A DNA stretch of 64,000 nucleotides from Escherichia phage vB_EcoM-UFV06: the sequence record OP555980.1. One strand, written 5' to 3'. Under the pieces are notes generated by a model. It worked only from the letters and a program-made list of their open reading frames with translations. It was not told the origin of the DNA and made no database searches. Positions 2,831 through 5,069 of this stretch are shown piece after piece (position 1 is the first letter of the stretch; every line of letters begins with the position of its first letter). Made by a program: the position numbers and the translations under genes.

Positions 2831-3304
2831 TTATTTGATTTGTTTAGCAGACCAAATGCGGTCTTTAATAATTTTTTGGATGTCTTCAACATACTCAAGA
2901 GAATGAGCATGTGGGTTATCTTTAAAGCTATGAGCACGAGCTAGCTTTTGGCCTTCAGTTTTGATTACTAAAAGCTCTTTAAGGATAGCTTCATATTTGG
3001 AGATAATTCCTTTAACGATATTTTTTTCTTGTGCGACTTTAGGATCTGCTTTAGGAGCAGGTTTACCCGAAGCCTTTGCAAAAGCAGCGCCAGTAGCAAC
3101 TAAACTTTTCCAGGCCATACTAACTGCATTTCCCGTAAATCCTTCCGCTTTCATGTCGCGTGCGAACTGGAATCGTGATTCATCAGAAGCATCTTTGTAA
3201 GAATATTTACCCGCTGCAATGGCTGCTTTTGCGACAGCTTGAATTTCGGTGCTAGATGCTTCATTTAACACCGCTTCATTTAAAAATTGAGTATATGATT
3301 TCAT
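2831..3304 (-). CDS. internal-protein-like head protein with capsid-targeting sequence
   Basis: N-terminus MKSYTQFLNEA resembles the T4 IP targeting sequence MKTYQEFIAE with L-x-E cleavage motif; own TATAAATA upstream; terminator hairpins on both sides. Confidence 0.6.
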   Translation of the reverse strand: MKSYTQFLNEAVLNEASSTEIQAVAKAAIAAGKYSYKDASDESRFQFARDMKAEGFTGNAVSMAWKSLVATGAAFAKASGKPAPKADPKVAQEKNIVKGIISKYEAILKELLVIKTEGQKLARAHSFKDNPHAHSLEYVEDIQKIIKDRIWSAKQIK

Positions 3305-3340
3305 CTTATTTCCTGTTTTAATTCGTGGATTTAATATACT

Positions 3341-3348
3341 TATTTATA
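3341..3348 (-). promoter_or_regulatory. late-promoter motif TATAAATA upstream of internal-protein-like gene
   Basis: Plus TATTTATA at 3341-3348, about 36 nt upstream of ATG at 3304. Confidence 0.45.
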
Positions 3349-3354
3349 CTAAAA

Positions 3355-3378
3355 AGCCCCAACCTTTTGGTCGGGGCT
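3355..3378 (-). terminator. intrinsic terminator (near-identical copy of the 2796-2822 element)
   Basis: AAAAAGCCCCAACCTTTTGGTCGGGGCT versus AAAAAGCCCCAACCTTTTGGTCGGGACT at 2796. Confidence 0.55.
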
Positions 3379-3379
3379 A

Positions 3380-3685
3380 AGCCTTGCGGCAACCTTGTCG
3401 GGGTTCCACCTGCTAAGGCAAGTGTTTGTACGAAACGCCGGGATTCGAACCCGGTTATTAAGCAGTTGACGCTACTCAATATTTTTAAAAGGCCATATCT
3501 CGACCATATCCGAACGTTCCGTCAAAAACGCTACTCGGCTTACGGCAAAGATATTTCCTCGAATCGATAATTCGGTGCGCCGTTTCTGCTGTGATAGTAA
3601 AGAGCCAGAACACAGTAAAACTGTGGGAGGAAACTATACTCCAGGGAACATCAGTCCGACGACTTACCGGTAGCGACCCGGTTTC
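3380..3685 (-). ncRNA. putative small stable RNA(s), rnaC/rnaD-like region
   Basis: About 300 nt without ORF, GC-richer than surroundings; contains tRNA-like T-arm (CCGGGTTCGAATCCCGG on minus strand, plus 3438-3454) with pairing acceptor-like ends; ends at a terminator hairpin. Confidence 0.35.
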
Positions 3686-4036
3686 TTAGTATTCTTTTAA
3701 AGCATCAATTTGTTCACGGCGTTTACGCCATAAATCAATTGCTTCATAAGCAGATTCAGCATTTCGAATTAGCCGACATTTATATAAAGACTTGTGATTT
3801 TGGTATTGCGTAGATAATGGAATTTTATCTAAAAGGTCTTTGCGTTCAAAGTATTCGTAACCATCTAAACCAAATGAACGATTTTTGAGAAATTGCCAAT
3901 GACCATATTCGTTTTCGACATAAACATAATCTGCATGCTGATAAAGCAAATTAATTACACGTTCAGAAATAACAGTATCATTATGATTAAAATAGAATGT
4001 TAAATCATGAACTACTAAATAAACATTACCTTTCAT
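3686..4036 (-). CDS. hypothetical protein
   Basis: 116-aa ORF between tRNA-Arg and the small-RNA region. Confidence 0.5.
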   Translation of the reverse strand: MKGNVYLVVHDLTFYFNHNDTVISERVINLLYQHADYVYVENEYGHWQFLKNRSFGLDGYEYFERKDLLDKIPLSTQYQNHKSLYKCRLIRNAESAYEAIDLWRKRREQIDALKEY

Positions 4037-4054: not shown

Positions 4055-4130
4055 TGGTCGAGGCAGTAGGGATCGAACCTACGACCCAGGACTTAGAAGG
4101 TCCTTGCTCTTCCTTCTGAGCTATGCCCCG
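4055..4130 (-). tRNA. tRNA-Arg (anticodon UCU), CCA encoded
   Basis: Hand-folded cloverleaf; anticodon loop CTTCTAA; T-arm GTAGG/TTCGATC/CCTAC; acceptor CGGGGCA/TGCCTCG. Confidence 0.8.
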
Positions 4131-4134
4131 TAAT

Positions 4135-4210
4135 TGGGGTGACCGATGGGAGTCGAACCCATGACTACGAGAATCACAATCTCGAGTTCTACCAACTGAA
4201 CTACGGCCAC
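4135..4210 (-). tRNA. tRNA, anticodon GUG (His by code; tentative, no G-1)
   Basis: Cloverleaf with U8, A14, G18G19, T-loop TTCGACT; anticodon loop TTGTGAT; CCA encoded. Confidence 0.55.
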
Positions 4211-4324
4211 ATTAATACCTACTCCAACAATCATGATGTCTTCACACGAAATTAAGAGAAGAGTGATCAGTTCAACCCCTATAATCGCGTCAAGTAGATA
4301 TTAATGTGACAGTTGTCACAAATT

Positions 4325-4399
4325 TGGCGGACGTGATAGGATTCGAACCTATAACCAATCGCTTAACAGGCGATCGCTCTGCCATTGAGCTACACATCC
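4325..4399 (-). tRNA. tRNA-Asn (GUU)
   Basis: Cloverleaf; anticodon stem ATCGC/GCGAT, loop CTGTTAA; T-loop TTCGAAT; CCA encoded. Confidence 0.8.
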
Positions 4400-4403
4400 A
4401 AAT

Positions 4404-4490
4404 TGGTGGGGAGTGATGGAGTCGAACCACCCGAGTCGCAATGACAATGAATTTACAGTCCACACCGCTACCTCTACGGGATAACTCCCC
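4404..4490 (-). tRNA. tRNA-Tyr (GUA), long variable arm
   Basis: 87 nt, 3-bp D-stem, anticodon loop CTGTAAA, 15-nt variable arm, T-loop TTCGACT; CCA encoded. Confidence 0.7.
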
Positions 4491-4496
4491 TTAATT

Positions 4497-4571
4497 TGGT
4501 GGCCCTGGGTGGAATTGAACCACCATCTGGCGATTATGAGTCGCTTGCTTGAACCTTCCAGCTACAGGGCC
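4497..4571 (-). tRNA. tRNA with anticodon CAU (Met or lysidine-modified Ile, as in T4 tRNA-Ile)
   Basis: Cloverleaf; anticodon loop CTCATAA; T-arm GGTGG/TTCAATT/CCACC; acceptor GGCCCTG/CAGGGCC. Confidence 0.75.
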
Positions 4572-4572
4572 T

Positions 4573-4648
4573 TGGTGCTGATTGACGGAATCGAACCGCC
4601 GACATCCTCATTACAAGTGAGGTGCTCTACCTACTGAGCTAAATCAGC
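4573..4648 (-). tRNA. tRNA-Thr (UGU)
   Basis: Cloverleaf; anticodon stem CCTCA/TGAGG, loop CTTGTAA; T-loop TTCGATT. Confidence 0.8.
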
Positions 4649-4653
4649 AAAGC

Positions 4654-4743
4654 TGGCGGAGGCGATAGGATTTGAACCTATGAATCGCCGGAGCGACTGC
4701 CGGTTTTCAAGACCGGTGCATTAAACCACTCTGCCACGCCTCC
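4654..4743 (-). tRNA. tRNA-Ser (UGA), long variable arm
   Basis: 90 nt; anticodon stem CCGGT/ACCGG, loop CTTGAAA; T-loop TTCAAAT; CCA encoded. Confidence 0.8.
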
Positions 4744-4745
4744 AG

Positions 4746-4819
4746 TCTCCATACAAGGATTTGAACCTTGGACCTCCTGATCCCAAATCAGGCGCTCTAC
4801 CAAACTGAGCTACACGGAG
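4746..4819 (-). tRNA. tRNA-Pro (UGG), CCA not encoded
   Basis: Anticodon stem CCTGA/TCAGG, loop TTTGGGA; T-arm CAAGG/TTCAAAT/CCTTG; only 2 nt from tRNA-Ser 5' end. Confidence 0.8.
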
Positions 4820-4829
4820 TAAATTAAAT

Positions 4830-4903
<74 letters not shown>

Positions 4904-4908
4904 AAATT

Positions 4909-4995
4909 TGGTGCGAGAAGTGGGACTCGAACCCACAAGGAAATCATTCCGCAGCATTTTAAGTGCTGTGCCTTTACCAATTTGACCATTCTCGC
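4909..4995 (-). tRNA. tRNA-Leu (UAA), long variable arm
   Basis: 87 nt; anticodon stem CAGCA/TGCTG, loop CTTAAAA; T-loop TTCGAGT; CCA encoded. Confidence 0.8.
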
Positions 4996-4996
4996 G

Positions 4997-5069
4997 CTGG
5001 GAATAAAGGATTCGAACCTTTGCATCTAGCAGTCAAAGTGCTATGCCTTACCAACTTGGCTAATTCCCA
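4997..5069 (-). tRNA. tRNA-Gln (UUG), U1:A72, CCA not encoded
   Basis: Anticodon stem TAGCA/TGCTA, loop CTTTGAC; T-loop TTCGAAT; 1 nt from tRNA-Leu 5' end. Confidence 0.8.

Follow-up and report, generated by a model that had tools for sequence, protein, structure and literature searches.

Homologues of the T4 stable RNA genes rnaD and rnaC at the distal end of the tRNA cluster of Escherichia phage vB_EcoM-UFV06

The minus strand of a 64,000-nucleotide (nt) stretch of Escherichia phage vB_EcoM-UFV06 (OP555980.1), here called the window, carries a block of about 300 nt (positions 3380–3685) between a small open reading frame (ORF) and a transcription terminator. Which genes, if any, does this block hold? 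A reading of the bare letters (below, the sequence-only reading) had described it as GC-richer and non-coding, and as a candidate for stable small RNAs, possibly rnaC and rnaD of phage T4, or for an unusual or intron-containing tRNA. The block was found to be homologous to, and syntenic with, the T4 genes rnaD and rnaC. Judged from sequence comparison, the probability that it consists of their orthologues, at the distal end of the phage tRNA cluster, is about 85%.

Identity of the block

Escherichia phage vB_EcoM-UFV09, a Tequatrovirus, matches the window at 100% identity. Distal to a cluster of 11 tRNA genes, its minus strand carries, in order, an ORF of 116 amino acids (aa), rnaD, rnaC, a trailer and a terminator (Table 1). 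In alignments with NC_000866 and X03016, T4 rnaD, rnaC, trailer and terminator cover the block from one end to the other. T4 rnaD lies at 71053–71171 and 4615–4734 in these two records, and T4 rnaC at 70908–71046 and 4741–4877. NC_000866 lists both as misc_RNAs, rnaD as species 2 and rnaC as species 1, straight after tRNA-Arg. Species 1 in X03016 is 137 nt long (CGAUUCG...CGUUUCGU) and extends from the first acceptor base to the base after the last acceptor pair. Window and T4 rnaC differ by 2 substitutions over 139 nt, one of which turns a G.U into an A-U pair in hairpin 2. They share their place after rnaD, their trailer and terminator, and their predicted fold; nothing essential differs.

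Phage Aplg8 has the exact layout of the window (tRNA-Arg, a gap of about 365 base pairs (bp), rnaD, rnaC, terminator) with rnaD and rnaC annotated, and at least 80% of the block is present in about 680 phage records. The suggestion of T4-type stable RNAs is thus borne out by the end-to-end alignment, the gene order and the Aplg8 annotation, and the feature is already known, since it is the same gene pair as T4 rnaD and rnaC. Species 2 (rnaD) and the tRNA-like species 1 (rnaC) were reportedly first found in T4 in the 1970s, and both are abundant there.

Composition and folding agree with much of what had been read from the letters. The T arm of rnaC is present as described and is the only copy in the window even at 2 mismatches (0 expected). 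The terminator was confirmed, with a 10-bp stem, an AAAA loop and a T-run. GC content is 0.477 at 3350–3649, against 0.32–0.37 in flanking coding DNA, and is similar to the 0.45–0.52 of the tRNA cluster. The minus strand of the block (307 nt, z = −3.78) and the rnaC part alone (z = −4.55) fold far more stably than shuffled controls, which the plus strand does not (z = −0.72). The block holds no credible ORF, as had been stated, but it is not free of mechanical ORFs: frames of 53, 42, 32 and 32 aa, and one of 81 aa on the plus strand, overlap it, all starting at TTG or GTG.

Rfam searches of a 3-kb stretch at E ≤ 1 and of the block itself at E ≤ 10 returned no family for rnaC or rnaD, nor did those with divergent homologues, and the block has no blastn match in 5,426 complete E. 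coli genomes. A 23-base structured pattern run over 185,579 bacterial and archaeal genomes hit 30 loci, which are regarded as chance matches because nhmmer confirmed none of them.

Table 1. Coordinates of the rnaD/rnaC locus and its parts in the window
Feature	Position	Strand	Remark
tRNA cluster, 11 genes	5069..4055	minus	ARAGORN and Rfam
116-aa ORF (phrog_3355)	4036..3686	minus	between tRNA-Arg and rnaD; absent from T4
rnaD (T4 species 2 RNA), predicted orthologue, 116 nt	3689..3574	minus	ends placed by homology only
rnaD 5' hairpin ACCGG-GUCGCUA-CCGGU	3682..3666	minus	invariant except closing pair (A-U, G-C or G-U)
Spacer GAAUUA between rnaD and rnaC, 6 nt	3573..3568	minus	X03016 has AAUUA(U) here, separating species 2 from species 1
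rnaC (T4 species 1 RNA), predicted orthologue, 139 nt	3567..3429	minus	NC_000866 boundaries
rnaC, 137 nt	3566..3430	minus	X03016 boundaries: first acceptor base pair to discriminator U
rnaC acceptor 5' strand CGAUUCG	3566..3560	minus	pairs with 3437..3431
rnaC arm 1, 70 nt	3559..3490	minus	position of tRNA D arm; 3-bp AGG/CCU helix, then long irregular hairpin
rnaC apical loop 1 UUGACG (arm 1)	3525..3520	minus	complementary to loop 2 over all 6 nt
rnaC hairpin 2, 10 bp	3481..3456	minus	anticodon/variable-arm position; "pot. stem-loop structure" in X03016
rnaC loop 2 CGUCAA (hairpin 2)	3471..3466	minus	proposed kissing partner of loop 1
rnaC T arm CCGGG-UUCGAAU-CCCGG	3454..3438	minus	middle pair covaries
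rnaC acceptor 3' strand CGUUUCG	3437..3431	minus	followed by discriminator U (3430) and ACA (3429..3427)
Conserved 3' trailer	3428..3379	minus	almost identical in T4
Intrinsic terminator of the tRNA/stable-RNA unit	3378..3355, or 3378..3350	minus	"pot. terminator" in X03016

Comparative structure of rnaC and rnaD

To collect rnaC homologues, viral and metagenome contigs were scanned with patterns and phage records were searched by blastn; nhmmer and a covariance model then confirmed them. A loose first viral pattern gave more than 100 chance matches, yet one of its hits, in Edwardsiella phage PEi20 (L121), is a genuine divergent homologue. A covariance model built from 22 homologues (R1), the kind of search that had been proposed for the block, has one match in the window, rnaC, at 163.8 bits. 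The final alignment (A4) holds 29 distinct sequences from at least nine genera: Tequatrovirus, Gaprivervirus/Mosigvirus-like, Karamvirus, Winklervirus, Kanagawavirus, Gelderlandvirus, Moonvirus, Marfavirus and Mosugukvirus.

RNAalifold and the minimum-free-energy fold of the single sequence (z = −4.55) agree on the structure of rnaC. Across A4, 92.9% of cells form a standard pair, against 37–44% when the 3' partners are slid by 1–3 columns, and compensatory change is seen in 33 of 52 pairs, against a shuffle mean of 16.2; A4 was fitted to the nested structure of the model, so these nested-pair counts are biased upward somewhat. None of 500 shuffles reaches the observed values. An earlier MAFFT alignment of 22 rnaC sequences gave the same picture. 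The comparison shows that rnaC is predicted to form a cloverleaf-like four-way junction.

The acceptor stem is made of 7 bp from the 5' and 3' ends of rnaC itself, including two conserved U.U mismatches. Pair 3:70 is A-U in 12 sequences, G-C in 16 and G.U in 1. Pectobacterium phage PM2 has the acceptor strands AGGUUCG/CGAAUCU; there A-U replaces C-G at pair 1:72, and U-A replaces each of the two U.U mismatches. The PM2 sequence (L248, 529–667) is the most divergent rnaC homologue, with a fully paired acceptor, G3.U70 and an encoded U-CCA end; G3.U70 is the alanine identity pair.

Arm 1 joins the acceptor 5' strand without a linker and is followed by a 9-nt A/U-rich linker. A single A separates hairpin 2 from the T arm, which abuts the acceptor 3' strand. 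In arm 1, helices 2–5 are 92.7–100% paired in A4, with compensatory change in 20 of 24 pairs, and hairpin 2 shows it at 9 of its 10 pairs. The middle pair of the T stem is G-C in 14 sequences, U-A in 13, A-U in 1 and U-G in 1. rnaC has no anticodon loop; the irregular 70-nt hairpin and the 10-bp hairpin replace the D and anticodon arms. The Winklervirus sequences and one further lineage of uncultured-phage contigs (L003 2511–2650, L242 1126–1263 and L007 5960–6099) have lost the T-loop consensus UUCGAAU and carry UGCAUCC, UGCAUC (6 nt) or UGCAUGC; everything else, the T stem included, is kept.

All 29 sequences have U as discriminator, as do E. coli tRNA-Gly and tRNA-Cys (U73). In rnaC it is followed by ACA in 27 sequences, and by CCA in Marfavirus VAC36 and Mosugukvirus PM2. 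The original sequencing paper reportedly gave a size of 140 nt, which equals the encoded 137 nt plus an ACA or CCA tail. T4 tRNAs without an encoded CCA are trimmed, and CCA is then added by host enzymes (PMC11143913).

The two complementary loops of rnaC are nearly invariant. Both are unchanged in 27 of 29 sequences, including genera with entirely different closing stems (PEi20, Melville, Kosakonia 305, NM4.3 and VPA32). All 6 loop–loop base pairs are possible in 28 of 29 sequences and 99.4% of cells pair, a count unbiased by the alignment because the loops lie outside the model structure. In Marfavirus (Klebsiella phage VAC36) the loops read UUGGCG/CGCCAA, a compensatory change from A-U to G-C, and PM2 retains the central 4 of 6 pairs. 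This suggests that the loops may make a kissing contact, either within one molecule or between two as a dimer. An intramolecular contact appears plausible given the bulges of arm 1, which would need to be bent back. No description of a loop–loop contact in rnaC was met in the literature searched, beyond which the 1970s papers lay.

In Karam-, Winkler-, Gelderland- and Mosugukviruses the rnaC homologue is flanked by tRNA genes, from which a few to about 20 nt separate it, and rnaD is not detectable in these phages. The order in Karam- and Gelderlandviruses is tRNA-Trp, rnaC, tRNA-Gly. This position between closely spaced tRNA genes fits release of rnaC by tRNA-processing enzymes. The reverse arrangement occurs in Escherichia virus TH41 (Gaprivervirus; L005, 1611–2116), which lacks rnaC and retains rnaD, the trailer and the terminator; it is a natural rnaC knockout or replacement. 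About 500 bp stand in place of rnaC in TH41, with a structured leader and a 127-aa ORF that has no PHROG or Pfam match.

T4 and window rnaD have conserved ends, 48 nt on the 5' side and 25 nt on the 3' side, around a central hairpin that is a different variant. An nhmmer search with the window rnaD found homologues at E values of 6e-32 to 3e-11, with T4 at 7e-14. After a leader of 7 nt, the RNA forms a short hairpin (5 bp, loop of 7 nt) and then a long one, which is closed by GUCGUCG pairing with CGGCG-CAC at the 3' end. In an alignment of 17 rnaD sequences (A3), 95.7% of cells are paired against 26–47% in slid controls, and compensatory change occurs in 9 of 29 pairs; the basal helix is uninformative because it is invariant. 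The fold is not tRNA-like. At least four unrelated sequence variants of the long-hairpin tip occur among close relatives. T4 and window rnaD also share the 5' hairpin, the basal helix and the place directly upstream of rnaC; they differ in the apical hairpin variant and at the 3' end, which is CACCA in T4 and CACCG in the window. rnaD directly follows a tRNA in T4 (tRNA-Arg) and several relatives, whereas in the window it follows the stop codon of the 116-aa ORF. When a T4-like phage was evolved on an E. coli host that is semi-permissive, all lines acquired one and the same single-nucleotide polymorphism (SNP) in rnaD (PMC12685909). This is the one functional clue that was found, and it hints at a role in host interaction.

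Some further likenesses link the two RNAs. The 5' hairpin of rnaD (AACCGGGU-CGCUA-CCGG; 3689–3666) resembles the T arm of rnaC (AACCGGGU-UCGAAUC-CCGG; 3458–3431), and the 5' bases GAAAC and CGGGUCG of rnaD are complementary to both rnaC acceptor strands. An old duplication or an alternative fold of the precursor may account for these features. The plus strand of the rnaD 5' hairpin bases was picked up as terminator-like in the terminator scan.

Processing and possible roles of the RNAs

We propose that the tRNA-maturation machinery of the host excises rnaD and rnaC from a polycistronic transcript. RNase P, which processes the T4 species 2–1 precursor, would cleave on the 5' flank of the acceptor stem of rnaC. 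Nucleases would trim the 3' end to the discriminator U, possibly followed by CCA addition, and the GAAUUA spacer is presumed to be removed during processing. The acceptor/T minihelix would be a potential substrate for the CCA-adding enzyme and for T-loop modification enzymes. Accumulation as stable RNAs, as in T4, would follow from such tRNA-type excision and trimming. In T4, RNAC and RNAD are counted among the late RNAs, and RNAC has been examined by northern blot (PMC9697503).

What the RNAs do can be framed as a set of guesses. At odds clearly short of even, rnaC might act in trans as a non-decoding tRNA mimic that titrates or recruits a factor recognising the acceptor/T half; a candidate target would be a tRNA-directed defence enzyme of the host or a processing enzyme. 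We also guess that rnaD could interact with the host, with diversifying pressure acting on its variable tip. A fuller version, which we think improbable, would make rnaC a distinct and broadly conserved class of non-decoding tRNA mimic in enterobacterial T4-like phages, with a CCA-tailed and perhaps aminoacylated U73 minihelix on a body locked by the 6-bp kissing contact, acting in trans as a decoy or carrier, and rnaD, given its fast-evolving tip and convergent SNP, a second host-range determinant. As a decoy, rnaC would bait a host factor that attacks or senses tRNA acceptor ends, such as a defence toxin. As a carrier, it would hold an aminoacyl group outside normal decoding.

Several points weigh against the orthologue reading and the structure and roles proposed with it. 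All RNA ends are placed by homology, and the two T4 records disagree on them by 1–2 nt per end. The 5' end of the window rnaD may be made differently from that of T4, since an ORF and not tRNA-Arg precedes it. The T loop of rnaC is degenerate in the Winklervirus sequences and in one further lineage of uncultured-phage contigs. The kissing helix rests on complementarity and one compensatory lineage, and the remaining loop positions are uninformative because they never vary. Arm 1 is about 24 bp long, about 2.5 times hairpin 2, so an intramolecular contact would need a sharp bend. The loss of rnaC from TH41 makes it dispensable in at least some hosts, and reviews and recent papers still list the roles of T4 rnaC and rnaD as unknown (PMC3014915, PMC12685909).

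Some of these points are shared by the strongest alternative, under which rnaC and rnaD are stable by-products that serve only in cis as processing signals or 3' protection of the tRNA operon transcript, or are decaying tRNA relics. Both RNAs do lie inside or at the end of tRNA operons. TH41 has swapped rnaC for an ORF, unrelated hairpins have replaced the centre of rnaD in different lineages, the T loop has decayed in the lineages named above, and about 50 years have passed without a found function. T4 deletion mutants missing the rnaC/rnaD region are reportedly viable. Against this, rnaC has been kept across at least nine genera infecting different Enterobacterales, with extensive compensatory change and near-invariant loops, and a relic would not retain 33 covarying pairs together with two complementary 6-nt loops. 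That one rnaD SNP arose convergently during host adaptation points to a phenotype. In Karam-like phages rnaC lies mid-array and not at the 3' end, which does not agree with 3' protection. By-product status is considered decidedly unlikely.

Alternative readings, annotation and neighbours

Very unlikely indeed is the reading of the 3' 93 nt of rnaC (3522..3430) as a class-II-like or intron-containing tRNA, with cggaacg/cgtttcg as its acceptor and hairpin 2 as its variable arm. The complementary 7-mers that had been noticed, cggaacg (plus 3515–3521) and cgtttcg (plus 3431–3437), are real and span 91 nt, as is the perfect T arm. Their pairing, however, is not evolutionarily conserved: an A.C occurs at the third pair in 8 of 22 homologues, PEi20 loses 3 of 7 pairs, and compensatory change is seen at 0 of 7. 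The internal cggaacg bases instead covary with the opposite strand of the central hairpin. The comparative data favour pairing of the 3' strand with the 5'-terminal CGAUUCG and not with the internal cggaacg, and the mature T4 RNA begins 45 nt further upstream.

Tools for tRNA detection gave scattered signals at this stretch. Rfam tRNA-Sec aligns exactly at 3430–3522, at only 16.6 bits (E = 1.2), far under its gathering score of 47, and leaves the D and anticodon arms unaligned. ARAGORN calls no tRNA here in the window or in T4. Of the 29 homologues, 3 have an ARAGORN tRNA at the corresponding stretch, each with another "anticodon" (tta, gaa and cat) that falls in the unpaired A/U-rich linker. 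At least one GenBank record (OK210076.1, H186) lists a tRNA-Phe feature there. The weak tRNA-Sec and ARAGORN signals arise from the internal acceptor alternative and are treated here as artefacts of tRNA-likeness. Rfam detected no group I or other intron family at the block. As for an intron-containing tRNA, deletion of internal segments never restores D and anticodon arms, and this part of the sequence-only reading was rejected.

rnaC was next set beside the known RNA classes that it resembles. Like a canonical tRNA (RF00005), it has a 7-bp acceptor and a 5-bp T stem, which carries a UUCGAAU loop and abuts the acceptor 3' strand; one discriminator base, a four-way junction topology and a place in a tRNA array are also shared. 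The acceptor stem would stack coaxially with the T arm, whose loop fits UUCRANY. There are also differences. There is no D arm and no 5-bp anticodon stem with a 7-nt loop, the acceptor contains two U.U mismatches, and the length is 137–139 nt. Junction linkers are 2, 1 and 4–5 nt in a canonical tRNA and 0, 9 and 1 nt in rnaC. The Rfam tRNA model gave no match, and rnaC is missed by tRNA covariance models and, in the window, by ARAGORN.

The transfer-messenger RNA (tmRNA, SsrA) is likewise non-decoding, with 5' and 3' ends that form an acceptor stem beside a T arm. It is matured by RNase P and has a tRNA-Ala-like domain with G3.U70, pseudoknots, a tag reading frame and a length of more than 230 nt. 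rnaC differs in having A-U at 3:70 (G.U only in PM2), no pseudoknots, no tag frame and about 139 nt. ARAGORN found no tmRNA in the window or in the 29 homologues, and Rfam found none at the block. An 11-mer, GCUUAAUAACC, presumed to be shared with the end of the E. coli tmRNA tag, was discarded as a link; it is the covarying 3' strand of hairpin 2 and varies among homologues.

YrlA (RF02553) is, like rnaC, a stable non-coding RNA with a tRNA-mimicking module, and some YrlA RNAs are phage-encoded. The ends of YrlA form a Ro-binding stem and its tRNA-like part is internal, whereas the ends of rnaC form the acceptor stem. RF02553 gave no match at the locus at E ≤ 10, and its weak matches fall on real tRNAs. 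rnaC is tRNA-like only in its acceptor/T half and does not pass as a tRNA, an intron-containing tRNA, a tmRNA or a YrlA.

That the block codes for two small proteins of 53 aa (3318–3479) and 42 aa (3485–3613) on the minus strand, as the two PHANOTATE-called "hypothetical protein" coding sequences (CDSs) of the identical record MZ291552.2 and similar entries under the block in many related records would have it, is hardly credible: the starts are TTG and GTG, the 53-aa frame crosses the rnaC T arm, trailer and terminator hairpin and cannot be conserved because other genera have a tRNA gene right after rnaC, variation is compensatory in RNA helices and not at codon third positions, and the homologous T4 products were characterised as RNAs.

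The rnaD/rnaC orthologue reading has consequences for annotation. Misannotation of the locus as spurious CDSs, tRNA-Phe or tRNA-Met is systematic. ARAGORN calls of tRNA-Phe or tRNA-Met on the 3' ~95 nt of rnaC were noted at L006 7816–7911, L014 943–1038 and L144 8491–8585. The block should be labelled rnaD/rnaC non-coding RNA. Rfam 15 holds neither RNA; a family could be started from alignment A4 and model R1. Possibly new are the covariation-backed structure, the proposed loop–loop contact, the U73-ACA/CCA tail and the occurrence of rnaC without rnaD across many Tevenvirinae genera. The comparative model offers handles on the roughly 50-year-old rnaC/rnaD question in the predicted true acceptor with its U.U pairs, the tail, the loops and the rnaC-only genera.

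The neighbourhood was inspected for promoters and other genes. The only perfect T4 late-promoter motif, TATAAATA (3348..3341, minus), lies downstream of the terminator and before a 157-aa ORF (3304..2831, phrog_2280), which it probably serves in place of rnaD. A MotA-box-like TGCTTTA (3704..3698, minus) lies about 10 nt upstream of rnaD, with no convincing −10 element. The 116-aa and 157-aa ORFs match only PHROGs of unknown function and have no Pfam match. In T4, tRNA-Arg and rnaD are 1 nt apart, and the homing endonuclease gene segB lies upstream of tRNA-Arg instead. Junctions between tRNA and stable-RNA genes seem to be hot spots for gene insertion. The genes of the tRNA array are otherwise closely packed, but 114 nt (4324–4211, minus) lie between tRNA-Asn and tRNA-His, and this spacer has no tRNA or Rfam match.

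The trailer contains a 7-bp hairpin (CACUUGC-CUUA-GCAGGUG), and trailer and terminator together fold with z = −4.43. Near-identical 24-nt terminator hairpins at 3378–3355 and 2823–2800 on the minus strand (AGCCCCGACCAAAAGGTTGGGGCT, AGTCCCGACC...) close two successive transcription units. The rnaC trailer holds a further copy, degenerate and partial (CCCCGACAAGGUUG; 3406–3389, minus), and the terminator cassette appears to have been duplicated.

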